From Frankiales bacterium (GTDB taxonomy: Bacteria; Actinomycetota; Actinomycetes; Mycobacteriales; SCTD01), in the NCBI GenBank assembly GCA_031416735.1, contig JANOTZ010000070.1:1-49599 (forward strand): DNA of 49,599 nt, in the 5' to 3' direction. The position numbers and the translations under genes were made by a program. The stretch's first letter is position 1, and each line of letters begins with the position of its first letter. The notes beneath the pieces were generated by a model that worked only from the letters and a program-made list of their open reading frames with translations, made no database searches and was not told the DNA's origin. This document shows positions 4,744-27,100 of this stretch, piece after piece.

Positions 4744-4788
4744 TCCTGGGTTCCTTGCGGTCAGATCAACCGCTGCCTCGCAGTCAGA

Positions 4789-6405: not shown

Positions 6406-6431
6406 GCTGGCCTCTGCACCGATGGGCCCCT

Positions 6432-7600: not shown

Positions 7601-8272
7601 ATGGATGTTGCGGAGCCACTGAGGGTTTTTCTGCTCGACGATCACGAAATCGTGCGCCAGGGACTGAAGGCACTCCTCGAGAGCGAGCCCGACCTGGTCG
7701 TCGTCGGAGAGGCGGCCACCGCCCAAGAGGCCTTGGCTCGGGTGCCGGCTCTGCGCCCCGACGTCGCGGTGCTCGACGTGCGACTCCCCGATGGGGACGG
7801 GATCACCGTCTGCCGCGAGCTGCGATCGACGCTGCCCGATCTGGCCTGCCTCATGCTCACGTCCTTCGGGGACGACGAGGCGTTGTTCAGCGCGATCATG
7901 GCGGGTGCGGCCGGCTACGTCCTCAAGCAGATCAGGGGAAGTGACCTCGTCGGCGCGGTCCGCACGGTGGGCCGCGGCGGCTCACTGCTCGATCCGCAAG
8001 CGACCACCCGCCTCCTGAACCGGATGCGCACGGAGGCCACCCGCAAGGACCCGCTCGACGTGCTCACCGATCAGGAACGGCGCATCCTGGACCTTATCGG
8101 CGAGGGCCTGACGAACCGGGAAATCGGCGCCCGGATGTTCCTGGCCGAGAAGACCGTCAAGAACTATGTCTCCTCGGTGTTGAGCAAGCTGGGACTCGTG
8201 CGACGCACGCAGGCAGCCGTGCTGATCGCCGAAATGCGCATGGGTGACCGCAGTGGTGACCTTCGGCCCTGA
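7601..8272 (+). CDS. dosR: NarL/LuxR-family response regulator, DosR(DevR)-like
   Basis: ORF 7556..8272. ATG at 7601 taken (223 aa). Near-colinear with recalled M. tuberculosis DosR: VFLLDDHEIVRQGL, RPDVAVLDVRLPDGDG, LTDQERRILDLIGEGLTNREIGARMFLAEKTVKNYVSSVLSKLGLVRRTQAAV. Confidence 0.9.
   Translation: MDVAEPLRVFLLDDHEIVRQGLKALLESEPDLVVVGEAATAQEALARVPALRPDVAVLDVRLPDGDGITVCRELRSTLPDLACLMLTSFGDDEALFSAIMAGAAGYVLKQIRGSDLVGAVRTVGRGGSLLDPQATTRLLNRMRTEATRKDPLDVLTDQERRILDLIGEGLTNREIGARMFLAEKTVKNYVSSVLSKLGLVRRTQAAVLIAEMRMGDRSGDLRP
8255..8271. promoter_or_regulatory. Candidate DosR-type site variant (GGTGACCTTCGGCCCTG) overlapping the dosR stop, upstream of PPOX-2
   Basis: Identical 17-mer to 22405-22421. 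Preceded by a second GGTGACC at 8243-8249. Lies 36-52 nt upstream of the PPOX-2 ATG. Confidence 0.3.
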
Positions 8273-8306
8273 CGCGCACCTGCTGTCCCCGCGCATCCTT
8301 CGCTGC

Positions 8307-11402
<3,096 letters not shown>

Positions 11403-11406
<4 letters not shown>

Positions 11407-12305
11407 CCGCAACCCTTCAGGCGATCGTGGTGGGGGTCGACGCCACGGTCCCCTCCGAACGCGCCCTGCAACGCGCCCTGCTGGAGGCGCACCGATCCAG
11501 CGCTGAGTTGCGGGTGGTGCATGCCTGGACCACCCCCGTCTGGACCGGTGGATTGCCCGGGTTCGACTACAGCGATCTCGCCTCCCCGACCGACAGCGAG
11601 AAGTTCGCCCAGGAACTGGTGGAGGAGCTGGTGGCCAAGGTCCTGTCCCCTGCGCCCCACACCCCTCCGGCCAGGGTGCGCACCGAGGTGCGCCACGGCG
11701 ATCCTGGGCACGTGCTGGTCCGCGCCTCGCAGGACGCTTCGCTCGTCGTGGTCGGAGGCAGAGGGCATGGCTACGTCACGAGCGCCCTGCTGGGCTCGGT
11801 GACGGACTACGTGGTGCACCACTCCCACTGCCCGACCATGGTCGTGCCCGAGACCGGCCCACCTGCCGGGCTCTTCCGGCAGATCATCGTCGGCGTCGAC
11901 GGGTCGCCGAGTTCGCGCGCAGCCCTTCGTTGGGGCGTGGAAGAAGCCCGACGGCACGACTGCCCCGTCATCGCGCTGCACGCCTGGTTGATCACCACCC
12001 TGCCCGGGCGCACCCCGGGCGAGGACCGCCACGGGCCCGCCCCGTTCGAGACCGAAGCACGCCAGTGGCTCGAGCGGGAGGTCGCCGAGGTCACTCCGGA
12101 CGCCGACGTCGGGATCGCGCTTACGCACGGCGGCACCACGTGGGCGCTGCTCGAGATGGCCGGACCCGACGACCTCCTGGTGCTCGGGTCCCGAGGGCGA
12201 GGGGGGTTCGCCAGTCTGGTGCTCGGATCGACTGCCACGCAGTGCTCCAGGCATGCCCGTGGGGTGGTCGTGGTGGTCCGCGCCGGGCCGGCCTCACCGT
12301 CATGA
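11403..12305 (+). CDS. Universal stress protein, tandem USP domains (USP-2)
   Basis: 300 aa. GTGA overlap with the Acg-2 stop. Motifs LVVVGGRGHGYVTSALLGSVTDYVVHHSHCPTMVV and LLVLGSRGRGGFASLVLGSTATQCSRHARGVVVVV. Confidence 0.9.
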
Positions 12306-12898
12306 GGGCGCTCCGCGCCCTGCCCCGCGTTCTGCCCCGCGCCCTGGGCTCTCTCGACCGGGCCGGCAGGAAGGTTCCGGCCACCGCAGCGGCGGGCGTC
12401 AGGTTCGTGACGAGAAGTGCCATCACCAACGCCCGTCGGTCCATCAACGACCTGACCACAGCCGGGGACGACCGCCGGGACCTGGTCAGCGGCCTTGAGA
12501 CCGCGTCCGTGCCCGGTGATGTTGCCCGCCTGTCAACAGCGGAGTGCCACGAACTCCTGGCGACAAAGTCGGTGGGGCGGCTCGCCTACATCGCCCGTCC
12601 CGGAGTCCCCGACATCGTCCCCGTCAACTACGTTGTCGACGGCAACGCGGTCCTCGTACGTTCCGCCCCCGGCCCCAAGCTCCAGGCAGCCGAACGGGGA
12701 GAGATGCTGGCCTTCGAAGTGGACGAGATCGATGGGGCCACCCACACCGGCTGGAGCGTCGTGGTCAGCGGTGTGGGCCGACGTCTCGCACCCGAGGAGC
12801 ACGATCGCTCACCCGAGCCTGGCCCTTGGGCCAACGGTCCTCGCCGTCACCTCCTGCGGATCGACCTGCGCCGCATCTCCGGCCGGCGGCTGTTGTAG
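12302..12898 (+). CDS. Pyridoxamine 5-phosphate oxidase-fold protein (PPOX-3) with N-terminal extension
   Basis: ORF 11930..12898. ATG at 12302 taken because it forms an ATGA overlap with the USP-2 stop (198 aa). Domain LSTAECHELLATKSVGRLAYIARPGVPDIVPVNYVVDGNAVLVRS...LAFEVDEID...GWSVVVSG. The first 75 aa or so are basic and low-complexity, so the true start may be later (for example GTG 12509). Confidence 0.7.
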   Translation: MRALRALPRVLPRALGSLDRAGRKVPATAAAGVRFVTRSAITNARRSINDLTTAGDDRRDLVSGLETASVPGDVARLSTAECHELLATKSVGRLAYIARPGVPDIVPVNYVVDGNAVLVRSAPGPKLQAAERGEMLAFEVDEIDGATHTGWSVVVSGVGRRLAPEEHDRSPEPGPWANGPRRHLLRIDLRRISGRRLL

Positions 12899-12998
12899 GT
12901 CGCAGGTCACTGTTGTGAGTCGCCGACCACTCGGCCCTTGGTGGCCCTACTGGCGGCTCGGCGCGGCGCCGGGCGGCCATCTGACCTGACCCGGCACG

Positions 12999-13868
12999 AT
13001 GCGTGCCATGCACCTCACCCGCCGACAGCTGCTGTTGCTCGGAGCGGGTGTGGGCGCGAGCGCTGTGGTGGGGGTCGCATCCACAGATGAAGGCACCCAG
13101 CTGGTTGACCGGCTCAACCCGCCGCGCGGTGCGGTGCCCGATGGACCCACCGGCCCCGTCGTGCGCGGGGTGCTGCAGTCGCGAGCGCGCGGCCGGGAGG
13201 TCCGGTGGGCGGTCGCATACCCGCCGGGCTCGCTGCCCGGCGCGGCCCTGCCCGTCGCGCTCGTCCTCCACGGGCGGTCGGGCGACAGCGGCCAGGCGTT
13301 CGGGTCGCACGCCTTGCACCACTTCCTCGCCGACGCGGTGCGTACGGGCACCCCACCGTTCGCGCTGGCCTCCATCGACGGCGGGGACCACACCTACTGG
13401 CACCGTCGGGCCGATGGGGATGACCCGCAGGCCATGCTCCTGGAGGAGTTCCTTCCGCTGCTCAAGCAGCGGGGCCTCAGCACTGAACACTTCGGCCTCA
13501 CCGGATGGTCGATGGGCGGGTACGGAGCTCTGCTGCTCGCGTCCCGTTGCCCGGAGCGCGTCAAGGCTGTCGCGGTCGATGCTGCTGCGCTGTGGCGCCG
13601 TGCCGCCGACACCGCCCCTGGAGCCTTCGACAATGCAGCGGACTTCGCGGGGCACGATGTGCTTGGACAGCTCGAACGGCTGCAGGGCCTGCCGTTGAGG
13701 GTCGGCTGCGGGCACTCGGACCCGTTCATCGCCACCAACAGAGCTCTCGTGAAGGCACTGCCGCAGACCGAGCACGCCTTCCCGCGAGGCGGACACAACA
13801 CAAGGTGCTGGAACCTGCTGCGACCTGGCGACATGCGCTTCCTCGGCCGCCACCTCTCCGCGACGTAG
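12999..13868 (+). CDS. Secreted alpha/beta-hydrolase, putative esterase family
   Basis: 289 aa. Tat-like signal MRAMHLTRRQLLLLGAGVGASAVVG. Nucleophile elbow GWSMGGYG. C-terminal GGHNTRCW. Confidence 0.8.
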   Translation: MRAMHLTRRQLLLLGAGVGASAVVGVASTDEGTQLVDRLNPPRGAVPDGPTGPVVRGVLQSRARGREVRWAVAYPPGSLPGAALPVALVLHGRSGDSGQAFGSHALHHFLADAVRTGTPPFALASIDGGDHTYWHRRADGDDPQAMLLEEFLPLLKQRGLSTEHFGLTGWSMGGYGALLLASRCPERVKAVAVDAAALWRRAADTAPGAFDNAADFAGHDVLGQLERLQGLPLRVGCGHSDPFIATNRALVKALPQTEHAFPRGGHNTRCWNLLRPGDMRFLGRHLSAT

Positions 13869-13954
13869 CCGTTGTACCGAGTCGTTCTCGGGTGTCTCGG
13901 CGTGAGGCGCTGGCATCCTCCTCGGCCTTGAGTAAAGAGGCCCGCTTCAGCACG

Positions 13955-14287
13955 TCACTGCGGCTTCCCCGCGACGTCGTGCACGCGGACGAAATCACGC
14001 AGGGCCGTCGAGAGCCCCAGGACGAGCTGGCGATCAGCGTGGCTGAGGCACAACCCTCGGTCGCTCCAGGAGAGCGCCCACCCGTGCGGGTCCACATCAC
14101 GTTCGAGGAGTTCGAGCAGCAACTCCCGTCGCTGCTGCAGGGTGGCGGCCTCATGATCAGTCTGCAGCGCGATCCGGAAGAGCAGCTCCGAGAGCGTCAA
14201 GGCGCCGAGCTCGTTCAGGAGGCGATCGAGCGCTAGCGCCACGGGTGCGAGGTACACATCACTCGTGTCGTGCGGGAGGTCGGGCAC
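13955..14287 (-). CDS. Hypothetical protein (110 aa)
   Basis: ORF 13955..14611. GTG at 14287 is preceded by AAGGAGAGAGCC (strong SD). The helical, Leu-rich sequence has coding-like composition. No family recognised. The upstream 108 codons are Arg/Gly/Cys-rich and rejected. Confidence 0.5.
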   Translation of the reverse strand: MPDLPHDTSDVYLAPVALALDRLLNELGALTLSELLFRIALQTDHEAATLQQRRELLLELLERDVDPHGWALSWSDRGLCLSHADRQLVLGLSTALRDFVRVHDVAGKPQ

Positions 14288-14368
14288 GGCTCTCTCCTTG
14301 TCGTGGTCCGCGGAGTTCACCGCAGGTGCTGTCAGGATCACCGTCCACGAAATCCGCTTCGTGGCACA

Positions 14369-14382
14369 GGGTCCTAGGTCCC
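14369..14382. promoter_or_regulatory. Candidate DosR-type site GGGTCC-TA-GGTCCC
   Basis: 14-mer of the same length as the DosR core (GGGACT-WW-AGTCCC). The right half matches 5/6. Lies 82-95 nt upstream of the 14287 start. 13/14 identical to the reverse complement of 43339-43352. Confidence 0.3.
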
Positions 14383-14440
14383 GTCGGGAGGAGGCGTCGG
14401 CCCTCCACGTCACCCCAGATCCACGTGCATGGCGTCCGCA

Positions 14441-14455
14441 CGGACCAAAGGTCCC
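14441..14455. promoter_or_regulatory. Candidate DosR-type palindrome GGACC-AAA-GGTCC upstream of the Pat operon
   Basis: CGGACCAAAGGTCCC. Its reverse complement GGGACCTTTGGTCCG matches the 10381 site at 13/15. Lies about 110-125 nt upstream of the Pat start. Confidence 0.35.
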
Positions 14456-14567
14456 TACCTGGCGGGTCTTCTGCCGCTGACCCCGCGGCCTGCACGCACC
14501 TAGCGTCGGACCTGCCACCACTGGCGCGGATCGCCGTGCCCGCCGTGCCCGCCGAAGGGAAATGCAC

Positions 14568-17264
14568 ATGAGGACCCTCGCTACCCCCACCGAGGCCGAC
14601 GTCCTGCTCATCGACGGGTCGATCGCGCACCTCCGTCCGGTCGGGCCGGCTGACGAAGCCGGGTTGCACGAGCTCTACGACCACGTGTCGGACCGGACTC
14701 TGTACCTGCGTTTCTTCACTGCCGGCCGCAGGTCAGCCGATCAGGACATCGCCAAGCTCGTCCGCAGCGACCCCGACCAACATGCCGCGCTCCTTGTGGT
14801 GCTCGCCGGTCGGGTGGTGGCCGTCGCGGGGTACGAGCGACTGGACGACCCCACCCAAGCCGAGGTCGCCTTCGTCGTCGACGACTCCTGCCAGGGTCTC
14901 GGCATCGGCACCCTGCTCTTCGAGTATCTGGCGTCCGCGGCCGCCGCACGGGGAGTCATCCGGTTCGTCGCCGAGACGCTCTTCGAGAACGCGCGGATGC
15001 TCCACGTGTTCCGGGACGCCGGCCTGCCCGTCTCGACCCGGTTGGACAGCCACGGCACAGTCCACGTCGACCTTCCGCTCTCACCGGACGAGCACTACCT
15101 GGACGTCGTCGGCGAGCGGGAGCGGATCGCGGGAACCGCCTCCCTCCGCCGGGTGCTCGCCCCCACGTCCCTGGTCGTGGCCGGCGCCGGTGCCAACCCC
15201 GACGGCCTGGGGCATCAGGTCTTCGCGAACCTCGTGGCAGGAGGCTTCACGGGTGCTTTGGCGGCCGTCAACCGCAGCGGAGAGAGCATCTGCGGCTTAC
15301 CGGCCTACCGGTCCTTGTCGGAGGTGCCCGGGCCGATCGATCTGGTCGTCATCGCCGTACCCGCATCTGGGGTGCTCGAGGTGGCTCGGGCCGCAGCAGC
15401 ACAGGGAGCGGCCGGGCTCGTCGTCATCACCGCCGGGTTCGCCGAGGCCAGCCCCGCTGGGCTGGCGCATCAGGCCGAGCTGCTGTCGATCTGCCGGGCC
15501 GGAAGCATGCGGCTGATCGGTCCCAACTGCATGGGGGTCGCGAACACTGCTGTGGCGATGAACGCGACGTTCTGCTCCACCCTCCCGCCGCCAGGAGGGC
15601 TCTCGCTCATGTCGCAGTCCGGTGCGGTCGGCATCGCCACCCTCGCCTACGCGGCACGTACGGGTGTCGGTCTTGCGTCCTTCGTGTCAGCGGGCAACAA
15701 GGCAGACGTGTCGGGCAACGACCTGCTGGCCTACTGGGAGACCGACCCGGCAACCAGGGTGTGCGCGCTCTACCTCGAGTCGTTCGGCAACCCACGCAAG
15801 TTCGCGCGCATCGCGGCGAGGGTCGGACGGCTCAAGCCCATCGTCGCGGTGAAGTCGGGCCGCTCGGTCTCCGGATCGCGAGGGGTCGCCTCGCACACGG
15901 CCGCCGCGGCGACACCCGACATCGCCGTAGACAGTCTCTTCACCCAGGCCGGCGTGATCCGGGTCGATTCCCTTGCTGAGCTCTTCGATGTCTCCACCCT
16001 GCTGGACCGGGCCCCACTGCCCCGCGGACGGCGGGTCGCGATCATCGGCAACAGCGGCGGCCCCGGGGTACTGGCCGCCGATGCATGCGAGGGGGCCGGG
16101 CTGCTCGTGCCTGCACTGGAACCGCACACTCGCGAACGGCTTGCGGCACTGTTGCCGCACGGCGCGGCGGTCGCCAACCCGGTCGACCTTCTCGCCGGCG
16201 CGGACGCGGCGACGTTCGAGGCGGCTTTGCGAGCTCTCCTCGACGACGACGGAGTCGACGCCGTCATCACCGTCTACACGCCGGTGCGCGCCGGTGCCGC
16301 CGACCTGATCGCGGCGGCAATCGTCCGCTGTCGGGCCGACCACCCGGACCTCCCGATCGTGGCGGTTTTCCTCGGCATCGACGAGATGCCCTCCCCGCTG
16401 CGAGACGATGCCGGTCGACCTTCCCTGCCGTACTACGCCTTTCCCGAACCGGCTGCCCGGGCGCTCGCCGCCGTGGCCGGGTACGCCGAGTGGCGCACCA
16501 GTCAGGTCGGGAGCATGCCTCAGCTGGACGGCATCGACCGACGGGTCGCGACCGAGATCGTGGACAGTGCCCTGACCGCGAACCCCGACGGGTGCTGGCT
16601 CGACGCTTCCCGGGCCGTCGACCTCGTCCGCAGTTATGGAGTGCACGTCGCACCGGTGATCGGCGTCTCCGATGCCAAGGAGGCCGCTGCGGCGGCAGCC
16701 AGACTCGGAGGGGCAGTCGCCCTCAAAGCAGCAGCGGGCGCCCTCGTGCACAAGACCGACCGGGGTGGGGTCCGACTGGGTCTTTCGACACCGGAGGAGA
16801 CGCGCGTCGCTTTCGGCGAGATGTCGGCCCGCCTGGGCGACGACATGGGTGGTGCCGTCGTGCAGGCCATGGTCGAGCAAGGGGTGGAGACGGCGATCGG
16901 TGTCGTGTCGGACCCACAGTTCGGGCCACTGGTGATGTTCGGTCTCGGCGGTGTCGCCAGTGACCTGCTGGCTGACCGCGCTTTCCGGCTGCTCCCTCTC
17001 ACGGTCGCGGATGCCGCAACGCAGATCCGGTCCCTGAAGGCCGCCCCGCTGCTCTTCGGCTATCGCGGGACCCCGCGCTGTGATGTCGCGGCACTCGAGG
17101 AGATGCTGCTCCGCATCGCAGCACTGGCCGACGACTTTCCTGAGCTCGCGGAACTCGATCTCAATCCCGTCGTCGTCACCGCCGACGGTGCGATCGCCGT
17201 CGATGTGAAAATCCGGCTGGCTCCGGCTGAACCGACCTTCCCGCTGCTCCGTCGCCTGCGATGA
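14568..17264 (+). CDS. Pat-type protein acetyltransferase: N-terminal GNAT fused to ADP-forming acyl-CoA synthetase-like domains (CoA-binding, ligase-CoA, ATP-grasp)
   Basis: ORF 14562..17264. The second ATG at 14568 has better spacing to GAAGGGA. GNAT core VVDDSCQGLGIGTLLFEYLASAAAARG. CoA-binding LVVAGAGANPDGLGHQVFANL...AVNR. RLIGPNCMGV. C-terminal ATP-grasp VALKAAAGALVHKTDRGGVRLGL. Confidence 0.85.
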   Translation: MRTLATPTEADVLLIDGSIAHLRPVGPADEAGLHELYDHVSDRTLYLRFFTAGRRSADQDIAKLVRSDPDQHAALLVVLAGRVVAVAGYERLDDPTQAEVAFVVDDSCQGLGIGTLLFEYLASAAAARGVIRFVAETLFENARMLHVFRDAGLPVSTRLDSHGTVHVDLPLSPDEHYLDVVGERERIAGTASLRRVLAPTSLVVAGAGANPDGLGHQVFANLVAGGFTGALAAVNRSGESICGLPAYRSLSEVPGPIDLVVIAVPASGVLEVARAAAAQGAAGLVVITAGFAEASPAGLAHQAELLSICRAGSMRLIGPNCMGVANTAVAMNATFCSTLPPPGGLSLMSQSGAVGIATLAYAARTGVGLASFVSAGNKADVSGNDLLAYWETDPATRVCALYLESFGNPRKFARIAARVGRLKPIVAVKSGRSVSGSRGVASHTAAAATPDIAVDSLFTQAGVIRVDSLAELFDVSTLLDRAPLPRGRRVAIIGNSGGPGVLAADACEGAGLLVPALEPHTRERLAALLPHGAAVANPVDLLAGADAATFEAALRALLDDDGVDAVITVYTPVRAGAADLIAAAIVRCRADHPDLPIVAVFLGIDEMPSPLRDDAGRPSLPYYAFPEPAARALAAVAGYAEWRTSQVGSMPQLDGIDRRVATEIVDSALTANPDGCWLDASRAVDLVRSYGVHVAPVIGVSDAKEAAAAAARLGGAVALKAAAGALVHKTDRGGVRLGLSTPEETRVAFGEMSARLGDDMGGAVVQAMVEQGVETAIGVVSDPQFGPLVMFGLGGVASDLLADRAFRLLPLTVADAATQIRSLKAAPLLFGYRGTPRCDVAALEEMLLRIAALADDFPELAELDLNPVVVTADGAIAVDVKIRLAPAEPTFPLLRRLR

Positions 17265-18271
17265 CAACCCATCGCGTGAGTGCTCCCGGGCCCAGACTGA
17301 GCTCCCGGTTCAGCGACGACGTGGTGCGCCACCTCATCACGACTGCCGGGCGTGCTCCGTCACTGCACAACAGCCAGCCCTGGCGATTTCGGCACGACGG
17401 CGAGGAGCTCGAGCTCCTCATCGATCCTCAACGCGCACTGCGGGTGTCGGATCCGGCCGCCCGTGAGCTTGTCCTTGCGTGCGGGGCGGCGCTCTACAAC
17501 CTCCGCATTGCCTTGCGTTGCGAGGGCCTGGTGCCCCACGTCGACCTCACACCCGCCTCGGGTGACCCGCTCCTGCTCGCCCGGATCACCGCGAAGCCAG
17601 GACCCGATCCGACGGCCGACGAACTGCGCCTGCTCGGGGCGGTCGCGCACCGGCACACCCACCGGCACGGGTTCGCGCAACGACCGCTGTCAGGCACCTT
17701 GGTCGCTGCGCTGGAAGCCGACGTCGCGGCGGAAGGCGCCCGACTGGTCTGGATCGACGCGCCCCAGCAGGTCCGAGCCGTCGCTGAGCTTGCGCTGCAG
17801 GCCGGCGAGCGCCAGAGCGCCGACCCTGACTGGCAGGCCGAGATCGCTCGCTGGGTGGACGATGAGACCGGGACAGGTCGGCGAGACGGCATCCCGACCA
17901 CCGCTCTTCCCGACGCACCCCCGCACCCAGGAACCGACCGACTCCCCCCTCGGCAGTTCGGCGTCAACGTTCCACGTGGTGCGTCCAGTCCCAACGGAGC
18001 GGGTCGGATCGCCGTACTCGTCACCCCGCAGGACGGACTCATCGACTGGGTCGCTGCCGGCCAGTCACTGCAACGGATGCTGTTGCGCGGCACCCTCGAC
18101 TGGGTGTTCGCCCGTTATGCAACCGCCCCGCTGGAGGTGCCAGACCTGCGCCAGGCGTTGCGCGACACCCTCGAGCTTCGGGATCATCCGCAGATGATGC
18201 TCGAGCTCGGGCACGCAGGATTCACCCGTCCGACTCCACGGCTGCCCGCCGACGAGCAGCTGGATCGATGA
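17261..18271 (+). CDS. Acg-family nitroreductase-like protein (Acg-3)
   Basis: 336 aa. ATGA overlap with the preceding stop. [12 protein letters not shown] motif. Colinear with Acg-1 and Acg-2. Confidence 0.88.
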   Translation: MTTHRVSAPGPRLSSRFSDDVVRHLITTAGRAPSLHNSQPWRFRHDGEELELLIDPQRALRVSDPAARELVLACGAALYNLRIALRCEGLVPHVDLTPASGDPLLLARITAKPGPDPTADELRLLGAVAHRHTHRHGFAQRPLSGTLVAALEADVAAEGARLVWIDAPQQVRAVAELALQAGERQSADPDWQAEIARWVDDETGTGRRDGIPTTALPDAPPHPGTDRLPPRQFGVNVPRGASSPNGAGRIAVLVTPQDGLIDWVAAGQSLQRMLLRGTLDWVFARYATAPLEVPDLRQALRDTLELRDHPQMMLELGHAGFTRPTPRLPADEQLDR

Positions 18272-18669
18272 TCGACGTCGACCTGACAACGATCCGCATG
18301 TTCGTCCATGTCCTGGCCGCCACCATCTGGGTCGGTGGTCAGCTGACCCTGGCCGCCCTGGTGCCCGTGCTCCGGTCGGTGGGGGGTGACGCTCCGAGGC
18401 TCGCAGCCCGGCAGTTCAACCGGATCGCCTGGCCTGCCTACGCAGTGCTGATTGTCACCGGCGCCTGGAATGCCGTCGCCGATCGGGAGGAGCTGCACGG
18501 TAGTTATGCCACCACGTTCACGATCAAGGTCGCGGTCGTGGCCGCCTCGGGTGTGACCGCCTTCTGGCACACCCGCGCAACAATACCCTCCCGGGTTGCC
18601 CTCACGGGAGCGCTCACCGGCCTGACGGCACTGGTCGCGCTCTTCCTGGGCATCGTGCTGGCGGGGTGA
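18268..18669 (+). CDS. Small 4-TM membrane protein, CopD-like
   Basis: 133 aa. ATGA overlap upstream. TM1 carries His (MFVHVLAATIWVGGQL). RQFNRIAWPAYAVLIVTGAWNA resembles the CopD-family RFS...TG motif. Four predicted TM helices. Confidence 0.7.
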   Translation: MIDVDLTTIRMFVHVLAATIWVGGQLTLAALVPVLRSVGGDAPRLAARQFNRIAWPAYAVLIVTGAWNAVADREELHGSYATTFTIKVAVVAASGVTAFWHTRATIPSRVALTGALTGLTALVALFLGIVLAG

Positions 18670-20129
18670 ACGCCGTCGTCGTGGAGACGCACTCCTCGAC
18701 CCTGTTCTTCGTCGACGGCTTGGTCTACAAGCGCAAGAAGCCCCTGGACCTCGGCTTCTGCGATTTCCGGACCCGCGAGGCTCGCCTCGCCGCCTGCGTG
18801 AACGAGGTCCGGTTGAACCGTCGCCTCGCGCCGGACGTCTACCTCGGCGTCTCCGACGTCCTCGGCACCGACGGTAAGCCCTGCGACCACCTCGTGGTGA
18901 TGCGTCACCTGCCGGATGACCGCCGCCTCGCGACCCTGGTCACCGGCGGAGCGGACGTCGAAGCCGCGCTCCGCGAGGTAGCGGTGCAGCTCGCGGACCT
19001 GCACCGGACGTCGCCGGCTCCCATCGCCCTTCGCGACCTCGCCCGCGGAGCCAGCCTGCAGCACTTGTGGGACGTGGGCTTGGATGCGTTGTGCGCCTTC
19101 CCCGATCTCGTCCCTGAGCCCGTGCGGGACAGGACCCGCGAGCTCGCCTCCCGGTGGCTGGCGGGGCGCGAACCCCTGCTCGCCCCGCGGGCCGAGACGC
19201 ACGTCTTCGACGGACACGGCGATCTGCTCGCCGACGACATCTTCGTGATGGAGGACGGCCCCCGGATCCTCGACTGCCTCGAGTTCGACGAACACCTGCG
19301 GGTGGGCGACGGCATCGCCGATGCCGCGTTCCTGGCGATGGACCTGGAGCGACTCGGCGCCCCCACAGCGGCGCGGACCTTCCTCGACGCCTACGAGCGT
19401 GCTGCGGGTGACCATGCTCCCGCGTCGCTGGAGGACCTGTACCTGGCCTACCGGGCCCACGTCCGGTGCAAGGTGTCCTGCATCCAGGCCCGGCAGCACG
19501 CCGACCCTCACGTCATAGCTCGCGCAGGTCAGCTGGCCGACCTTGCGTTGGCGCATCTCGAGCGGGCGCGGATCCGCCTCGTCCTGGTCGGCGGGCTTCC
19601 GGGCAGCGGCAAGACGACCCTGGCAGCAGGCCTCGCGACCGACACCGGCTGGACGCATCTGTCCTCTGATGTGACGCGCAAGCATCTGGCTGGGGTCGAC
19701 ACCACTGCCCACGAACGCTTCCGAAGCGGGCTCTATGCCCCCGAGATGACGGAACGCACCTACGAGGCACTGCTCACGGAGGCCCGCACAGCCTTGTCCC
19801 TGGGTCGCAGCGTCGTCCTCGACGCCTCGTGGGTCGACCAACAGTGGAGGGCGCGAGCGCGGGCTCTCGCCGAGGAGGTGTACGCCGACCTCGTCGAGCT
19901 GGAGTGCGTCGTCGCGGCGGACGTCGCGGAGGCGCGCATCCTGCGACGGGTCTCCACCAGCTCCGATGCGACGCCGGCGATCAGGCGCCAACTGGGTGCC
20001 GTCGCCGACCCGTGGCCCGAAGCCGTCACTGTCGACACCCAGGGCTCACCCGCCAGCACGCAGGCGACGGTCCTGGGCCTTGCCGGCTGGCACCCCAGCG
20101 ACCGGCTGTTGTCCGCCCGGCGGAGCTGA
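18666..20129 (+). CDS. Bifunctional aminoglycoside-phosphotransferase-fold / P-loop ATPase protein (Rv2004c-like)
   Basis: 487 aa. GTGA overlap upstream. N-terminal kinase-fold pattern (VYKRKKP..., HGDLLADDIF). C-terminal Walker A LVGGLPGSGKTTLA. Confidence 0.8.
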   Translation: MNAVVVETHSSTLFFVDGLVYKRKKPLDLGFCDFRTREARLAACVNEVRLNRRLAPDVYLGVSDVLGTDGKPCDHLVVMRHLPDDRRLATLVTGGADVEAALREVAVQLADLHRTSPAPIALRDLARGASLQHLWDVGLDALCAFPDLVPEPVRDRTRELASRWLAGREPLLAPRAETHVFDGHGDLLADDIFVMEDGPRILDCLEFDEHLRVGDGIADAAFLAMDLERLGAPTAARTFLDAYERAAGDHAPASLEDLYLAYRAHVRCKVSCIQARQHADPHVIARAGQLADLALAHLERARIRLVLVGGLPGSGKTTLAAGLATDTGWTHLSSDVTRKHLAGVDTTAHERFRSGLYAPEMTERTYEALLTEARTALSLGRSVVLDASWVDQQWRARARALAEEVYADLVELECVVAADVAEARILRRVSTSSDATPAIRRQLGAVADPWPEAVTVDTQGSPASTQATVLGLAGWHPSDRLLSARRS

Positions 20130-20171
20130 GCAACCGGCCGCTGTCTGTCCGGCGGAGCTCAGCAGCCCCGG

Positions 20172-20702
20172 TCAGATGAACAGGAGCTGCGCTCCCGCCG
20201 TCTTCCCGATGAAGTCGGCGGCGCTGATGATGCCCTCGACGTCGTCACGCAGGTCGGTCTCGGTGAGGTGGTTCATGTCAGCGGACATCCGGCAGGCCCA
20301 CAGGTGCCCGCCAGCAGCGACGATCTGGTCGAGGAAATCAGGCACCTCGGGCACCCCGGCGTCCGCGATCTGCTTCTTCAACAGTTTCGTCGCCATGGCG
20401 GTCATCCCCGGCAGCGGGGCGAGCGCCTGGGGAAGCCTCAGATCGCCGACGGGGAGGTGCATCGCCGCGTTGCCGACCGGGCTGAAGGCCAGATCGTTCA
20501 TCCTCGACTTCGTGATCATGTCGAAGCCCCAGAACGTGAAGAACAGCTGGGTCTCCACACCCTCACCCAGGGCGGCGTTGGCCAGGATCAGACCCGGGTA
20601 GGCCATGTCGAGGTTGCCCTTCGAGCAAATGATGGCCAACTTGCGGCCGCTGTCATCGTCGAACGACGGCACGATCGCCGGAGATGTCTCGGTCAGGGTC
20701 AT
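20172..20702 (-). CDS. DsrE/DsrF-like sulfur-relay family protein (COG2210 type)
   Basis: ORF 20172..20873. ATG at 20702 preceded by GAAGGAGA (176 aa). KLAIICSKGNLDMAYPGLILANAALGEGVETQLFFTFWGFDM and conserved Cys in HLWACRMSADM. Confidence 0.8.
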   Translation of the reverse strand: MTLTETSPAIVPSFDDDSGRKLAIICSKGNLDMAYPGLILANAALGEGVETQLFFTFWGFDMITKSRMNDLAFSPVGNAAMHLPVGDLRLPQALAPLPGMTAMATKLLKKQIADAGVPEVPDFLDQIVAAGGHLWACRMSADMNHLTETDLRDDVEGIISAADFIGKTAGAQLLFI

Positions 20703-20715
20703 CGTCAGATCTCCT

Positions 20716-21030
20716 TCACACACAGCCGCGAGGCTTGGGCAGCCCGGCGATGTAGGCCATCTTCTTCGCCGGCTTCTTCGGGAACAACGTGAACTGCTCC
20801 TTGACAGGGATCCCGCCCACGGTCTGCACCCGACGGGTCGTCGCAGTCTCACCCTGCGTCGGGTAGTCCTCACGCAGGAACCGGATCACCTTCCAGTGCT
20901 CGACTGTCAGGGCGATGCCGATCTGGGCGGCAAGCACCTCTGCGAGGCTCTCGTTCCACTCGGCGTATTCGGTCAGGAAGCCCTCGTCGTCGACGTGGAC
21001 CTGATGGCCACTGAGCTCGGTCACGGGCAT
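20716..21030 (-). CDS. TusE/DsrC/DsvC-family sulfur-relay protein (single C-terminal Cys)
   Basis: 104 aa. AAGGAGA RBS. FLTEYAEWNESLAEVLA...HWKVIRFLREDY and C-terminal GLPKPRGCV. There is no second Cys 11 residues upstream, so it is TusE-like rather than canonical DsrC. Confidence 0.85.
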   Translation of the reverse strand: MPVTELSGHQVHVDDEGFLTEYAEWNESLAEVLAAQIGIALTVEHWKVIRFLREDYPTQGETATTRRVQTVGGIPVKEQFTLFPKKPAKKMAYIAGLPKPRGCV

Positions 21031-21043
21031 GTCGCGTTCTCCT

Positions 21044-22279
21044 TCAGGACTCTTGGTGCTTGCCGGCCATGGACATCAGTGCGGGTACTGGCATCGATCG
21101 CCCAGGCAGCAGCAGATGCCAGTAGGCCCACCGGAAGCCGAGCTTTCCCCAGTGGTTCATGTGGCTCTCCTCGAGCAGGGTGAACGGACCGATGCCCGGC
21201 ACGGGGTACCTACCCGGCAGCGGTTCAGTGTCATAGTTGAAGTCGATCAGCAGCCCCTTGCCGCGGCCCGACTCGATGAAGCAGTTGGCGTGCCCATCGA
21301 ACGAGTGCGTCATGGGGCGGCCCTCGACGTGGTCGAGGAAGTTCTCCGCGAACAGCTCCACCGCGAAGTGGGCAGCCGACCCCGCCTTGGAGGTGGGGAT
21401 GTTGGACGCGTCGCCGAGGACAAAGATGTTGTCGTGCGCCGTGGACCGCAGGGTGTGCTTGTCGACGGGCACATAGTTGAGCTCGTCGCCGAGGCCCGAT
21501 CGGGCGATCAGGTCAGCGCCCATGTTCAGCGGCACGGTGACGAGGAGGTCGAAAGGCACTTCGCGTTCGTCCATCGAGACAAGCATCTTCGCCTCAGGGT
21601 CAACCCGGTCGATCACGAAGTCGCCCTCCAGAGCGATCTCCCGGTCGGTGAGCATGTCGCCCAGATGCTTCGAGGCGATCGGCTTGGTGAAGGCGCCTTC
21701 AAGGGGGGTGACGTAGGTGATGGCAACCCGGTCGCGCATCCCTCGTTCGGCGAAGAACGCGTCGGCTAGGAAGGCAAACTCGAGGGGCGCGACAGGGCAC
21801 TTGATGGGCATCTCGACGATGTGCACGACGAGACGGCCGCCCTCCCACGTCGCGAGCTTGTCGCGCAGCGCGATGGCGCCTTCCAACGTGTAGAAGTCGA
21901 AGATGCTGTTACGCCACTCCCCCTCCAACAGGCCAGGCGTCTGGTCGGGTCGCGGCGAGGTGCCGGTCGCGATGACCAGGTAGTCGTACGGGAGTGCCCG
22001 GCCGTCGGCAAGCAGGACCTGCTGGGCATCCGGATCGACCCGGTCGATCCCTCCCAGCACCAACTCGACACCCTCCGGCACGAAGCGGTGTCGCGACTTG
22101 ACCAGCTCCTCCGGCTCGTAGACCCCGAATGGCAGCAGCAGCAGGCCTGGCTGATAGAGGTGGTCGTCGTCCTGGTCGACCACCGTCATCTTCCACTGCG
22201 CACGGTCCAGTCGGTGTCGCAACTTGTTGACCGCCATCGTGCCGGCCGTTCCTGCTCCCAGGACCACCAGTCGCCTCAA
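21044..22279 (-). CDS. sqr: Sulfide:quinone oxidoreductase-like FAD-dependent disulfide oxidoreductase
   Basis: ORF 21044..22444. TTG at 22279 is preceded by GGAAGGA 6 nt upstream and gives MRRLVVLGAGTAGT (411 aa); alternative GTG at 22312. Candidate redox Cys in IKCPVAPLEF and GHANCFIE. VLGDASNIPTSKAGSAA FAD motif. Confidence 0.7.
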   Translation of the reverse strand: MRRLVVLGAGTAGTMAVNKLRHRLDRAQWKMTVVDQDDDHLYQPGLLLLPFGVYEPEELVKSRHRFVPEGVELVLGGIDRVDPDAQQVLLADGRALPYDYLVIATGTSPRPDQTPGLLEGEWRNSIFDFYTLEGAIALRDKLATWEGGRLVVHIVEMPIKCPVAPLEFAFLADAFFAERGMRDRVAITYVTPLEGAFTKPIASKHLGDMLTDREIALEGDFVIDRVDPEAKMLVSMDEREVPFDLLVTVPLNMGADLIARSGLGDELNYVPVDKHTLRSTAHDNIFVLGDASNIPTSKAGSAAHFAVELFAENFLDHVEGRPMTHSFDGHANCFIESGRGKGLLIDFNYDTEPLPGRYPVPGIGPFTLLEESHMNHWGKLGFRWAYWHLLLPGRSMPVPALMSMAGKHQES

Positions 22280-22404
22280 CGCAGTTCCTTCCGTCGTGAC
22301 GATCTTGTCCACCCTGACGGCCGAGAGGGAGGGCCGAACGTCCCCACCCGACGGGCCGATGAGCCCGCAGGCGCCCACCCCCGTGCGGACTCGACACCGA
22401 CAGA

Positions 22405-22421
22405 GGTGACCTTCGGCCCTG
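22405..22421. promoter_or_regulatory. Candidate DosR-type site variant in the sqr / narK divergent promoter
   Basis: GGTGACCTTCGGCCCTG, identical to 8255-8271 (20 of 21 identical when the flanking CAGN is included). Lies 68-84 nt upstream of the narK start. Confidence 0.3.
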
Positions 22422-22488: not shown

Positions 22489-23715
22489 GTGATGTCCACG
22501 GCCCACAATGGCGCCAACACGGGCAGCGGACCCCGCCCGGAGGTGATGCTCGTTGTCGCCGCGCTCGGGTTCGCTGTGAACTTCTGGGCCTGGGCCCTGC
22601 TCAGCCCCTTGGCGATCCGTTTCAGGAACGAGTTGGACCTCTCGCCCTTCCAGCAGGCACTCGTGGTCGCCGTTCCCGTCCTTGTCGGCTCTCTCGGGCG
22701 CATCCCCGTCGGCGCGATGACCGACCGCTACGGCGGCCGCATCATGTTCCCGGCCGTCTCGCTCACCACCGTGGTCCCCGTGTTGTTCCTGGGGCTGGCC
22801 GGTCACAGCTCCTTCGCCGGGCTGCTCATCGGCGGCTTCTTCCTCGGGGTCGGCGGCACCGCCTTCGCGGTCGGGGTCCCCTTCGTGAACGCGTGGTTCC
22901 CCCCGGAACGCCGCGGCCTGGCCATCGGCGTCTTCGGCATGGGGATGGGCGGCACCGCGATCAGCGCCCTCACCACCGTCAAGCTCGCCAACTCCAGTGG
23001 CCTCAAGGCCCCGTTCCTGCTCACTGCCGCGGTCCTCGTCGCCTACGCGGCGCTCGCCGCCGTGGTGCTGCGGGACTCACCCCTTCGGGTCCCCAGCAGC
23101 GGTTCCGCTACGGCACGGCTGCGCCAGGCCCTCCAACTCAGGGTGACCTGGCAGGCCGCGGCCCTCTACTCCATCGGCTTCGGGGGTTATGTCGCGTTCT
23201 CCGTCTACCTGCCGACCTACCTCAAGAACGCCTACAGCCTGACCCAGACCGATGCGGCCAACAAGATGGCCGGCTTCGTCGTGCTGGCGGTCCTCATGCG
23301 CCCGGTGGGTGGGTGGCTGTCCGACAGATTCCAGCCCACCAGCGTCCTGGCGGCCGCCTTCGGCACCGTCGCCGTCGCGGCAGCGGTCCAAGCAACCACC
23401 CCGGACCTGTCACCGGTGGGGACAGCGGCTTTCCTCGTGATGGCGGCAGCCCTCGGCGCCGCCAGCGGCGGCATCTTCGCGCTGGTGGCCCAGCTCACCC
23501 CCGCCGACAGAGTCGGCTCGGTGGCCGGTCTGGTCGGTGCCGCAGGAGGTCTGGGCGGCTTTATCCCGCCGCTGTTGATGGGGGCGGTCTACGGCAGCTC
23601 GGAAGACTACGGACTCGGGCTGGCGCTGCTCTCCGGGGTCGCCGCCGTGACCCTGGTGTTCACCCTCACTGCGGTGCGGCGCACCCAGGACCTCGCCCGG
23701 CGCCAGCATGCCTGA
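22489..23715 (+). CDS. narK: MFS nitrate/nitrite transporter (NarK/NNP family)
   Basis: 408 aa, 12-TM profile. Sequence pattern and position directly upstream of narG in an overlapped operon. Confidence 0.85.
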   Translation: MMSTAHNGANTGSGPRPEVMLVVAALGFAVNFWAWALLSPLAIRFRNELDLSPFQQALVVAVPVLVGSLGRIPVGAMTDRYGGRIMFPAVSLTTVVPVLFLGLAGHSSFAGLLIGGFFLGVGGTAFAVGVPFVNAWFPPERRGLAIGVFGMGMGGTAISALTTVKLANSSGLKAPFLLTAAVLVAYAALAAVVLRDSPLRVPSSGSATARLRQALQLRVTWQAAALYSIGFGGYVAFSVYLPTYLKNAYSLTQTDAANKMAGFVVLAVLMRPVGGWLSDRFQPTSVLAAAFGTVAVAAAVQATTPDLSPVGTAAFLVMAAALGAASGGIFALVAQLTPADRVGSVAGLVGAAGGLGGFIPPLLMGAVYGSSEDYGLGLALLSGVAAVTLVFTLTAVRRTQDLARRQHA

Positions 23716-24133
23716 CATCACGCCCCTCTCCTCGCGGGGCGACATCGACGTGCTGCTCACCTCGTTCTACGAAGGCGCCCTGGTCGATGACCTGCTCGGC
23801 CCGGCCTTCCGGCACGCCCAGTTGGATCTGCGCACCCACCTGCCCCGGATCGGCGACTTCTGGGAACGCACCCTGCTCGCGACCGGTCGTTACGACGGCC
23901 AACCGATGGTGACCCACCGTCGTCTGCACGACACCTTCCCGCTCACGCCGCCGATGTTCGCCCGCTGGCTCGAGCTCTGGCGGGACGCGGTGGACAGCCG
24001 CTTCGACGGGGCCAACGCCACCCGTGCGAAGGACACCGCGCAGCGCGTCGCCGACGCCCTGCAGCGCCAGTTCCACGACGGACGGACGCTGCTGCAGATC
24101 GGGCACTGCCAGGCTGAGGGAGAGCGCACATGA
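23708..24133 (+). CDS. Group III truncated hemoglobin
   Basis: 141 aa. FYEGALVDDLLGPAF...HLPRIGDFWERTLL..GRYDGQPMVTHRRLH..FPLTPPMFARWLELW matches the recalled trHb-III (Ctb-like) pattern. Overlaps narK by 8 nt and narG by 4 nt. Confidence 0.8.
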   Translation: MPDITPLSSRGDIDVLLTSFYEGALVDDLLGPAFRHAQLDLRTHLPRIGDFWERTLLATGRYDGQPMVTHRRLHDTFPLTPPMFARWLELWRDAVDSRFDGANATRAKDTAQRVADALQRQFHDGRTLLQIGHCQAEGERT

Positions 24134-27100
24134 GTGGCAAGCAGAGCGGCCCGGGGCTCGACGGGGGACTGAGCGATGCGCTCATTCGGGCCGGACGCCA
24201 CTTCCGCAAGGGCGAGGTGTCCGCCGATCACAGGACCCTGCACCAGATCGGCGGCCGTGAAGCGGACAGTTTCTATCGGGACCGTTGGAGCCACGACAAG
24301 GTCGTCCGGTCCACCCACGGCGTCAACTGCACCGGATCGTGCTCGTGGAAGGTCTACGTCAAGGACGGCATCATCACCTGGGAGTCGCAGCAGACCGACT
24401 ATCCCTCCGTCGGTCCAGACAAGCCGGAGTACGAGCCCCGCGGCTGCCCCCGCGGCGCCGCCTTCTCCTGGTACACCTACTCCCCCACCCGCGTCAGATA
24501 TCCCTACGTGCGCGGGGTTCTGCTGCAGCTGTTCCGCGAGGCGAAGGCGCGGCGCAACGGCGACCCGGTGCTCGCCTGGGGCGACATCGTGTCCAACCCC
24601 CTGCTGGCAAAGCACTACAAGAACGCCCGCGGCAAAGGCGGCCTGGTGCGCGCCACCTGGGACGAGGCGATCGAGCTCGCGGCGGCCGCACACGTCTACA
24701 CGATCAAGACTTACGGACCCGACCGCGTCGCCGGTTTCAGCCCGATCCCGGCGATGAGCATGGTCAGCCACGCTGCCGGCGCCCGCTTCTACACCCTGCT
24801 CGGCGCACCTCTGCTGTCGTTCTACGACTGGTACGCCGACCTCCCGGTTGCCTCCCCGCAGGTGTTCGGCGACCAGACCGACGTACCCGAGTCGGGTGAC
24901 TGGTGGGATGCCACCTACCTGATGCTGTGGGGCAGCAACGTCCCGGTCACCCGCACCCCGGATGCGCACTGGATGACCGAGGCTCGCTATCGCGGGCAGA
25001 AGGTCGTGGTGTGTTCGCCGGACTACTCCGACGCCACCAAGTTCGCGGACGAGTGGTTGGCCCCGTCGCCGGGCACCGATGGCGCGCTCGCCATGGCGAT
25101 GGGGCATGTGCTGCTGCGCGAGTTCTTCGTCGAGCAGACCACTCCCTACTTCGAGAGCTACGTCAAGCGCTTCACCGACCTGCCTTTCCTCATCCGGCTC
25201 GAGGAACGCGGGGACGGCACCTACGTGCCGGGCAAGTTCCTCACCGCCCACGACCTCGGCCACACCTCCGAGCATGCGCAGTTCAAGACGGTCCTGCTCG
25301 ACACGGAGACCCGTGACCCGGTCGTCCCGCACGGCACCCTCGGCGACCGGTTCGGCCCCGACGGTGCAGGCCGATGGAACCTCGAGCTGGGCAACACCAA
25401 CCCCCTCCTCACCCTGTACGGCGAAAGGCCCGTCCCCGTCTCGCTCCCCCGCTTCGACACCCCCGACGGATCCGGTCTCGTCATCGAGCGGGGTGTGCCG
25501 GCCATGACGGTGGGCGGGCACCTCGTCACCACCGTCTTCGACCTGCTTCTCGCGTCGTACGGAGTCGGGCGCGACGGCCTGCCCGGGGTGTGGCCCACCG
25601 GGTATGACGACCCGTCCTCACCGTGCACCCCTGCGTGGCAGGAGGAGATCACCGGTGTGCCCGCGCACAAGGCGGAACGGATCGGCCGGGAGTTCGCGCA
25701 GAACGCCGTCGACTCCAAGGGCCGCTCGATGATCATCATGGGGGCCGGCACCAACCATTACTTCCACTCCGACACGATCTACCGCGCGTTCCTGGCCCTC
25801 ACGACGTTGACCGGGTGCCAGGGCGTGAACGGTGGCGGCTGGGCGCACTACGTCGGCCAGGAGAAGGTGCGGCCTCTGACCGGCCACCAGATCCTGGCTA
25901 TGTCGACCGACTGGCAACGGCCGCCGCGGCAGATGATCGGCACCGCCTACTGGTATCTCGCCACCGGTCAGTGGCGCTACGACCCGTTCCAGGTGGACGT
26001 GTTCGCCTCGCCGACCGCGGCACCCGGCTTCCGCGGGATGACGACGGTGGACGTGCTGGCCCAGTCCGCCCGGCTCGGGTGGATGCCGTCGTATCCGACG
26101 TTCAATGTGAACCCGCTGGACCTCGGCGACGCGATCGTGGAGTCCGGAGAGACCCCGTCGAAGTACGTCACCGACGGCATCGCGAACGGCCAGATCTCCT
26201 TTGCCGTCGAGGATCCCGACGCGGCGGAGAACTTCCCGCGGGTGCTGACGGTGTGGCGGGCGAACCTGCTCGGCTCGTCCGGCAAGGGCAACGAGTACTT
26301 CATGAAGCACCTGCTCGGCGCGGAGAGCTCGCTGCGGGCGGAGGAAGCACCCGAGGAGCTGCGGCCCCGCGACGTGACGTGGCGGGAGGAGGCGCCCGAG
26401 GGCAAGCTCGACCTGCTGCTGGCGCTGGACTTCCGGATGACGTCGACCACGCTGTTCGCCGACATCGTCCTGCCCGCCGCGACCTGGTATGAGAAGCACG
26501 ACCTGTCGAGCACCGACATGCACCCGTTCGTCCACGCGTTTAGCCCGGCCATCTCGCCGCCGTGGCAGACCCGCACCGACTTCGACATCTTCCTCACTTT
26601 GGCGCAGGAGGTCAGCCGACAGTCGGAGGGACATCTCGGCAAGCGCACCGACCTGGTCGCGACGCCGCTGGCCCACGACACACCCGACGAGATGTCCCTG
26701 CCCTCAGGCATTGTGCGGGACTGGCGGGCCGACGGCAGCACCCCGATACCCGGGGTCAACTTCCCGAAACTCGCCCTCGTCGAGCGCGACTACACCCAGA
26801 TCGCCGCCAAGATGGGCGCCCTCGGACCGCTCGCGAGCAGCCTCGGGGCGACCACCATGGGGGTGACCTATGACCTTACCCAGCCGGTCGACTACCTGCG
26901 GGCCAAGACCGGGGCCGTCGGGGGGGGGGTGGCGGACGGACGGCCCCGACTGGACCGGGACGTGCACATGTGCGAGGCGATCCTGGCGCTGGCACCCACG
27001 ACCAACGGTCACCTTTCGGTGCAGGGCTTCCGGACCCTCGAGAGGCGCACCGGCACGGCGCTGGTCGACCTCGCCGCGGAGCACGAGGGCAAACAGATCA

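Follow-up and report, generated by a model that had tools for sequence, protein, structure and literature searches.

A four-gene overlapping series in a DosR-type island of a Frankiales bacterium, probably a lineage-specific operon drawn from a shared hypoxia gene pool

The DosR regulon of Mycobacterium tuberculosis and the OsdR island of Streptomyces coelicolor are the described systems whose gene content resembles that of the locus reported here (PMC5069765, PMC10034137). Co-regulation of the Acg, Rv2004c and universal stress protein (USP) families by DosR is already established, and the predicted core regulon of Mycobacterium abscessus includes neighbouring genes for a nitroreductase, a USP and an Rv2004c orthologue (PMC10034137). 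As in PatA of Streptomyces lividans, a leading GNAT domain fused to an acyl-CoA synthetase-like module defines the lysine acetyltransferases of type II, class I-alpha (PMC6456759). Here, we analyse a series of four genes in which a fusion of this kind is joined to an Acg-family gene, a gene for a small CopD-like membrane protein and an Rv2004c-type gene. The series occupies positions 14562-20129 of the forward strand of contig JANOTZ010000070.1 (assembly GCA_031416735.1, Frankiales bacterium), and the whole stretch of 49,599 nt that was analysed, with a G+C content of approximately 69 %, is referred to as the window.

In our assessment, the four genes probably constitute a lineage-specific, DosR-activated and translationally coupled operon of four independent members of a hypoxia gene pool. 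Gene 1 (14562-17264, +; an open reading frame of 900 aa) encodes the fusion of a GNAT domain to an ADP-forming acyl-CoA synthetase module, gene 2 (17261-18271, +; 336 aa) the Acg-family protein, gene 3 (18268-18669, +; 133 aa) the CopD-like membrane protein and gene 4 (18666-20129, +; 487 aa) the Rv2004c-type dual kinase-like protein. Codon-position G+C supports a coding role for all four, and there is no intergenic DNA between them, each junction being a 4 nt overlap of stop and start codons: ATGA at 17261-17264, ATGA at 18268-18271 and GTGA at 18666-18669. On re-reading, these junctions and the intact reading frames agreed with the overlapped forward-strand layout given in the initial annotation, and its four family assignments were upheld by profile searches and structure comparison, that of gene 3 only as far as CopD-like. 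The single transcript that it had proposed is plausible, given the lack of intergenic DNA and the shared upstream region with two Dev-box-like sites, and we infer that the genes are co-transcribed. Such overlaps favour an operon, yet they are no rarity here: at least three more same-strand junctions of the window (at 11403, 24130 and 30139) also share 4 nt.

The start codons are supported to different degrees. Gene 1 has two candidate ATG codons, at 14562 and 14568, the latter being the start used for the identical 898 aa database protein P0241. The start of gene 3 is backed by homologues that have a constant length of 133 aa and align from residue 1, and that of gene 4 by Rv2004c-type homologues whose alignments begin at residues 1-3. 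Confidence is lower for the start of gene 2, given an in-frame GTG 15 nt further on and an alignment to the family model that begins only at residue 25. At the other end of the series, a 32 nt tandem direct repeat (81 % identity, 20097-20160) spans the stop codon of gene 4 and fills most of the 42 nt gap before a convergent DsrE2 gene.

The operon lies 4-7 kb downstream of the genes for a response regulator and a sensor kinase. The regulator, of the NarL family (7556-8272, +; true start probably near 7616), is a DevR/DosR orthologue and the presumed activator: it scored 262 bits against M. tuberculosis DevR (3c3w), with VraR as the next best match at 152 bits, and its recognition helix, FLAEKTVKNYVS, matches the M. 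tuberculosis DevR helix in every residue, K179, K182 and N183 included. A pyridoxamine-phosphate-oxidase-like gene (8244-8663, +) stands between the regulator and a convergent kinase gene of the DosS/DosT type (8647-10212, −), which encodes two GAF_2 domains, HisKA_3 and HATPase_c. The kinase reading frame as a whole runs to 10941 (8647-10941, −), and its 5′ part beyond approximately 10212 was rejected on the grounds of codon bias and of a real Acg gene on the opposite strand; the kinase gene itself probably starts near 10212. Because a DevR orthologue, a GAF-GAF-HisKA_3 kinase, Acg and USP genes, narK-narGHJI and a CtpF-like ATPase gene are clustered, the approximately 45 kb stretch is, to judge by its gene content, a classical DosR/OsdR-type island. 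The dormancy context that the initial annotation had drawn from the gene families is real, and the regulator and kinase upstream, which it had not mentioned, belong to it.

With the M. tuberculosis regulon and the S. coelicolor island the window shares the DevR orthologue with its identical recognition helix, the GAF-GAF kinase, candidate regulatory palindromes of the form GGGxC-N4-GxCCC in presumed promoter regions, and the clustering of Acg, Rv2004c-type, tandem USP, nitrate transport and reductase, CtpF-like ATPase and pyridoxamine-phosphate-oxidase-like genes. It differs in gene order, in having three Acg paralogues, two of which are coupled to USP genes, and in the addition of the acetyltransferase-synthetase fusion, the CopD-like membrane protein and an embedded sulfide module, consisting of sulfide:quinone reductase (SQR), DsrE2 and DsrC.

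Upstream of gene 1, an open reading frame on the reverse strand (13955-14611, −) shows codon bias only up to approximately 14260-14290. Its 5′ part was rejected as a gene for this reason, which leaves approximately 270 bp of non-coding DNA (14290-14561) before the operon. Two Dev-box-like palindromes, each with one mismatch, lie in this region: a distal one, GGGTCCTAGGTCCC (14369-14382), 193 nt upstream of the first ATG, and a proximal one, GGACCAAAGGTCCC (14442-14455), 120 nt upstream. They are similar to the DevR box (GGGAC-N4-GTCCC) as well as to the OsdR box AGGGCCGATCGGCCCT (PMC5069765). Of the 34 Dev-box-like sites in the window with no more than one mismatch, 10 are in non-coding DNA, which makes up 9.4 % of the sequence (binomial p ~8e-4). 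These 10 stand before plausible members of the regulon and include the two before this operon, one before an Acg-USP operon and three in the divergent region between the SQR gene and narK (at 22331, 22353 and 22406). At 17 loci, the regions upstream of acetyltransferase orthologues contained 21 such sites, where approximately 5 were expected, typically 50-190 nt from the start codon. Because Dev-box-like sites are enriched both in non-coding DNA and before acetyltransferase orthologues, control of the operon by DosR appears likely. One Dev-box-like 14-mer, GTGACCTTCGGCCC, occurs twice in identical form, at 8256-8269, where dosR ends and the oxidase-like gene starts, and at 22406-22419 in the SQR/narK intergenic region. 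A scan of the whole window with Rfam gave no matches.

The order of the four genes was not found elsewhere. We compared loci anchored on the Rv2004c-type gene (from 80 species of the genome collection, at no more than 67 % identity; 63 of the loci extended 5.6 kb or more upstream), on the membrane-protein gene (84 loci) and on the acetyltransferase (five contexts). The four-gene order was present at none of the 63 informative Rv2004c-anchored loci and at none of the 84 anchored on the membrane-protein gene; Acg alone stood upstream of the Rv2004c-type gene at 4 of the 63. On the loci compared, the order is private to this lineage. The four genes do not form a conserved unit. The initial annotation, which read the operon as linking the four families, had named a lack of conservation of the arrangement in related genomes as one result that would speak against it; this is the result obtained. 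On the acetyltransferase side, the relative with 80 % identity is followed instead by genes for phosphoketolase, acetate kinase and a USP.

The families do recur in each other's company at the level of the island. Within 10 kb of Rv2004c-type genes, in any orientation, we found USP genes in 43 of the 80 species, DosR-like regulators in 25, Acg in 24 and GAF kinases in 22, with varying order and strand. The ATPase occurred there in 19 and the acetyltransferase in 11, but the membrane-protein gene in none; a phmmer search with the membrane protein against all open reading frames of 84 Rv2004c-anchored loci likewise gave no match. The pairs are shuffled. Acg is directly upstream of the Rv2004c-type gene at three loci (L016, L055 and L064) and precedes the membrane-protein gene at three others (L085-L087), and in a metagenome-assembled genome of the Pseudonocardiales (L170) a regulator and a kinase are followed by an Acg gene that overlaps the acetyltransferase gene by 4 nt, in the order opposite to that of the window. 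The acetyltransferase adjoins a USP gene in 6 of the 16 other loci that have an acetyltransferase homologue (L024, L041, L071, L130, L169 and L171). The combination of island-level co-occurrence and shuffled pairs argues that the gene set travels as an island pool, of which Acg is the most promiscuous member.

Acetyltransferase orthologues usually stand beside the DosR/DosS pair itself (as in L170-L173). At L171-L173 (about 6900-13900), the acetyltransferase gene is inserted in the regulator-oxidase-kinase core, between the regulator and the oxidase-like and kinase genes and divergent from the regulator. The same core of regulator, pyridoxamine-phosphate-oxidase-like gene and convergent GAF kinase that occupies 7556-10212 of the window is present in L014, L171 and L173. 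At L169, whose acetyltransferase (80 % identity) is the nearest relative found on a long contig, the genes for the acetyltransferase, phosphoketolase, acetate kinase and a USP follow each other on one strand (phosphoketolase and acetate kinase at 4223-7627), and the phosphoketolase and acetate kinase genes are also near the acetyltransferase at L171 (749-4191) and L172 (741-4186). At L086, fragments of the acetyltransferase (residues 2-160, 445-468 and 595-625) and the C-terminal 130 aa of an Acg protein are encoded at 2632-3946, directly followed by an intact membrane-protein gene and then by phosphoketolase (tract 3964-4377); this appears to be a decaying series of acetyltransferase, Acg and membrane-protein genes. 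No phosphoketolase or acetate kinase gene was seen in the window.

Two candidates that arose in this comparison were discarded. At L081 (65 % identity), an open reading frame (9579-10004) that overlaps the Rv2004c-type gene by 4 nt was considered as an equivalent of the membrane-protein gene and rejected, as it resembles an N-terminal remnant of a phosphoenolpyruvate-utilizing enzyme; the remnant is pyruvate phosphate dikinase-like, and a gene of the same type occurs in the S. coelicolor OsdR island. Cluster C1, the commonest small neighbour of the membrane-protein gene, was considered as CsoR-like and rejected, being cupin-like and unrelated to the genes of the window.

In the gene 1 product, Pfam places GNAT at residues 24-155 and the CoA_binding, Succ_CoA_lig, Ligase_CoA_2 and ATP-grasp_5 domains across residues 201-886, which is the domain architecture of a type II, class I-alpha acetyltransferase. 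The GNAT domain matches the structure of the S. lividans PatA GNAT (4nxy, E = 9e-23), and its acetyl-CoA motif (Q/R-x-x-G-x-G/A) is present as Q111-G-L-G-I-G. Since 113 of 120 homologues keep this motif intact, the GNAT domain is arguably functional too. As in PatA, the GNAT domain of gene 1 is N-terminal and precedes an NDP-forming acyl-CoA synthetase-like module of approximately 700 aa. Gene 1 differs from PatA in that the catalytic histidine of the synthetase is kept, in that a collagen-like GPS motif was not noted at its C-terminus, and in that its genomic link is to DosRS, not to control of acetoacetyl-CoA synthetase.

According to a review, type I and type II acetyltransferases lack the catalytic histidine and their synthetase domains are inactive (PMC8556138). 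The loss expected for a type II enzyme is not the case in gene 1, where a complete alpha and beta module retains both catalytic histidines. The alpha-subunit residue, in S-H445-T, shares an alignment column with the histidine of the SHTG motif in 8wzu, 9y43 and 2csu, where Escherichia coli PatZ has asparagine, and the beta-subunit residue is His730 (HKTD). S-H-T is kept in at least 104 of the 120 closest homologues (P0241-P0360), mostly as SHTAA. The retention of His445, contrary to the textbook description, sets this subfamily apart from it. Compared with the ADP-forming acyl-CoA synthetases 8wzu, 9y43 and 4xyl, gene 1 has the full five-subdomain module with the conserved alpha (SHT) and beta (HKTD) histidines, and differs in the N-terminal GNAT, in the subfamily-specific SHTAAAATP in place of SHTGSLAG, and in scoring under the equivalog cut-offs. 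Since the phosphohistidine is conserved and phosphoketolase and acetate kinase are neighbours of the relatives, we judge a live ADP-forming synthetase plausible, and gene 1 probably encodes an active one; such an enzyme plausibly leaves room for acetyltransferase activity as well.

These features bear on an alternative explanation, in which gene 1 would be primarily a metabolic ADP-forming acetyl- or acyl-CoA synthetase that supplies ATP through substrate-level phosphorylation once respiration breaks down, with the GNAT domain as a regulatory or self-modifying appendage and the partner genes as incidental. The synthetase module is closer to true ligases (381 bits to 8wzu and 341 bits to 9y43) than to E. 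coli PatZ (293 bits), both catalytic histidines are in place, some relatives carry the NCBI name ‘bifunctional acetate--CoA ligase family protein/GNAT’, and phosphoketolase with acetate kinase, a pair that likewise turns acetyl units into acetate and ATP, is encoded beside orthologues at L169, L171, L172 and L086. However, the protein remains under the NCBIfam equivalog cut-offs (TIGR02717, 440.5 against 567; NF045493, 441 against 1300), its motif is SHTAA rather than the canonical SHTG, the review cited above calls the synthetase domains of types I and II inactive, and the acetyl-CoA motif of the GNAT domain is intact in nearly all homologues. We regard a primarily metabolic role as possible but doubtful.

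Gene 2 is the third Acg paralogue of the window and encodes a predicted FMN-binding protein of the nitroreductase fold. It exceeded the cut-off of the NCBIfam Acg model (NF047509; 261 bits against 199) over residues 25-332 of 336, and it matches MsAcg (2ymv, E = 4e-23). With the family of Acg, Rv2032 and Rv3131 it thus shares a score above the family cut-off, a similar length and an end-to-end alignment with MsAcg. Unlike its relatives in the window, which pair with USP genes, gene 2 pairs with the acetyltransferase and the membrane protein, and it is only approximately 34 % identical to these paralogues (34 % for the one at 10453-11406).

The C-terminal part of the gene 4 product has a P-loop kinase domain (AAA_33, 85 bits, Pfam). 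In an AlphaFold model with a pLDDT of 93.5, Foldseek related the N-terminal part to APH, choline-kinase and methylthioribose-kinase folds (3dxq, 6ctz, 2pu8) and the C-terminal part to gluconate-kinase and PNK folds (2rhm, 4eun, 1knq). The loops HGDLxADD and LDCxEFD are invariant in the family. An exact-sequence look-up of gene 4 gave no match, and we infer its membership of the Rv2004c family from this architecture, from the source names of relatives and from the DosR-island context. With Rv2004c and MAB_3902c it shares the union of APH-like and P-loop kinase domains in approximately 490 aa and a position in a DosR island beside Acg and USP genes, and differs in the catalytic-loop variant HGDLxADD. 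Weak streptomycin phosphotransferase activity has been reported for Rv2004c (cited in PMC8701281), and the native role of the protein may be another.

Gene 3 is best described as CopD-like rather than as a certified CopD protein, since it scored under the curated cut-offs (PF05425, 28.6 bits against 32.1; NCBIfam NF033808, 27 against 195), and many of its homologues have a precomputed PF05425 hit. The family is large (more than 4,200 matches) and constant in length, and His14, His101 and the motif R-x-F-N...T-G-x-W-N are invariant or nearly so. The structural model is confident and helical, and a fold search with it against the PDB returned nothing better than E = 1. Like CopD, it is a membrane protein made of helices, the first of which carries a histidine, and has a conserved R-x-F...T-G motif; its partial Pfam match is to the C-terminal half of CopD. 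It differs in length (133 aa against approximately 300 aa), in scoring below the Pfam and NCBIfam thresholds, in having no solved fold relative, and in the lack of copC or a copper-operon context.

The gene 3 family had no conserved neighbour across the 84 loci, with Acg adjacent in approximately 7 and sulfide-module or CsoR-like genes nearby in approximately 6. The latter loci suggest another explanation, in which the juxtaposition in the operon would be mere island shuffling and the membrane-protein gene would belong with the sulfide module (DsrE2, DsrC and type III SQR), not with genes 1 and 2. At L085, a DsrE2-DsrC-SQR cluster stands beside a cysteine-desulfurase-like gene that is followed by Acg and the membrane-protein gene; sulfide-module or CsoR-like genes are near homologues at L112, L113, L119, L157 and L166; and the sulfide module of the window (20172-22315, −) lies approximately 42-43 nt downstream of the operon, in convergent orientation. 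The link to sulfide genes is nevertheless confined to the approximately 6 loci counted above, approximately 7 others showing Acg instead, and in the window the membrane-protein gene overlaps both of its neighbours by 4 nt. We consider this explanation improbable.

The initial annotation had offered a different hypothesis, a USP-directed switch of acetylation and phosphorylation driven by acetyl-CoA or ATP status. Spelled out, the four proteins would make up a dedicated module: its acetyltransferase and dual kinase would act on USPs, or on DosR, in response to acetyl-CoA and ATP levels, and the Acg and membrane proteins would have accessory or redox-sensing roles. There is published precedent for the targets: the mycobacterial acetyltransferase MsPat acetylates a USP (PMC8556138), and acetylation of K182, which is conserved in the regulator of the window, abolishes DNA binding by DosR (PMC5999986). 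Translational coupling is tight at all three junctions, the adjacency of acetyltransferase and USP genes at six loci points weakly in the same direction, and the 4 nt overlap at L170 and the decayed series at L086 bring together subsets of the four genes. Against such a module, the complete order is absent from every locus compared, the membrane-protein gene mostly stands among unrelated genes, and downstream of the acetyltransferase in its closest relative are phosphoketolase and acetate kinase genes instead of Acg, membrane-protein and Rv2004c-type genes. At L086, moreover, the acetyltransferase and Acg genes have decayed while the membrane-protein gene is intact. A dedicated module is, in our view, decidedly improbable.

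Our data agree better with a model in which the operon is a lineage-specific assembly under DosR control. Transcription would most likely start from the non-coding region 14290-14561 with its two Dev-box-like palindromes. The GAF-domain kinase would phosphorylate the neighbouring DosR orthologue, which would probably activate the operon as part of a hypoxia or nitric-oxide stress regulon, and the four proteins would be made by coupled translation. They would then be four co-induced stress functions from the shared island gene pool, and not the steps of one pathway. The product of gene 1 could convert acetyl-CoA to acetate and ATP, acetylate lysines according to the supply of acetyl-CoA, or both; it would be accompanied by an Acg-type FMN protein, a small membrane protein with two invariant histidines and an Rv2004c-type dual kinase-like protein.

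Several observations weigh against this model. When two mismatches are allowed, Dev-box-like sites are not enriched in the window as a whole (59 observed against 79 expected); both sites before the operon are one mismatch off, and the search pattern is loose. Scans of 14200-20300 found neither a promoter of the sigma-70 consensus nor an intrinsic terminator, including after gene 4, and there may be promoters inside the coding sequence of the operon. The tie of gene 4 to Rv2004c itself is drawn from architecture, source names and island context. Lastly, the recurrent adjacency of Acg to three partners could reflect a real functional link, which a view of parallel functions would underrate.

The remainder of the island contains further gene pairs of the same kind. 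A sister operon (10453-12305, +) consists of an Acg gene (10453-11406) and a tandem USP gene (11403-12305) that overlap by GTGA at 11403-11406, with a Dev-box-like site at 10381. A second (5497-7370, −), divergent from dosR, consists of an Acg gene (6432 to approximately 7370) followed by a tandem USP gene (5497-6405). Both Acg genes (10453-11406, +, and 6432-7370, −) are full-length, with 277 and 271 bits against NF047509, and flank the DosR/DosS genes. A third tandem USP gene is found at 43433-44335 (+), which brings the totals for the window to three Acg paralogues, gene 2 included, and three tandem USPs. The three tandem USP genes that the initial annotation had placed in the island were all recovered (5497-6405, −; 11403-12305, +; 43433-44335, +). 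The third is directly upstream of, and possibly overlaps, the gene for the CtpF-like P-type ATPase (43433-46968, +), in parallel with ctpF of the M. tuberculosis DosR regulon.

Downstream of the operon, the sulfide module comprises genes for DsrE2, a DsrC-like protein and the type III SQR, the last of which scored 635 bits against the ‘selenoprotein subtype’ model NF049943. It is followed by narK, a weak globin-like open reading frame and narGHJI (22489-30885). The globin-like frame (23708-24133, +; 141 aa), in the gap between narK and narG, has a weak truncated-globin match (Bac_globin, E = 0.007, under the cut-off) and overlaps narG by 4 nt. Genes for SufS-like, OsmC and CsoR-like repressor proteins were also present in the window.

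Overall, the operon itself represents one more permutation of a known stress island, in which all of the families and the type of island were known before. The association of its first gene with DosRS may have wider implications. Tentatively, and with the odds rather against it, the GNAT-synthetase fusions with SHTAA could be a DosRS-linked bifunctional subfamily that converts acetyl-CoA to acetate and ATP under hypoxia and in addition draws on the same pool of acetyl-CoA to acetylate DosR (at K182) or co-encoded USPs, with Acg as a recurrent translationally coupled partner; if true, this would couple carbon and energy status to the dormancy regulon in a feedback loop. No report that joins DosR with ADP-forming or NDP-forming synthetases was found in the open-access literature searched. 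Outside mycobacteria, DosR/DosS pairs are repeatedly flanked by a GNAT-synthetase fusion with an apparently competent ADP-forming synthetase, often together with phosphoketolase and acetate kinase, which points to the production of ATP from acetyl units by substrate-level phosphorylation in an ancestral hypoxia response, possibly with acetyl-CoA-dependent protein acetylation. If an enzyme connects acetylation with DosR, fusions of the gene 1 type are concrete candidates for it.

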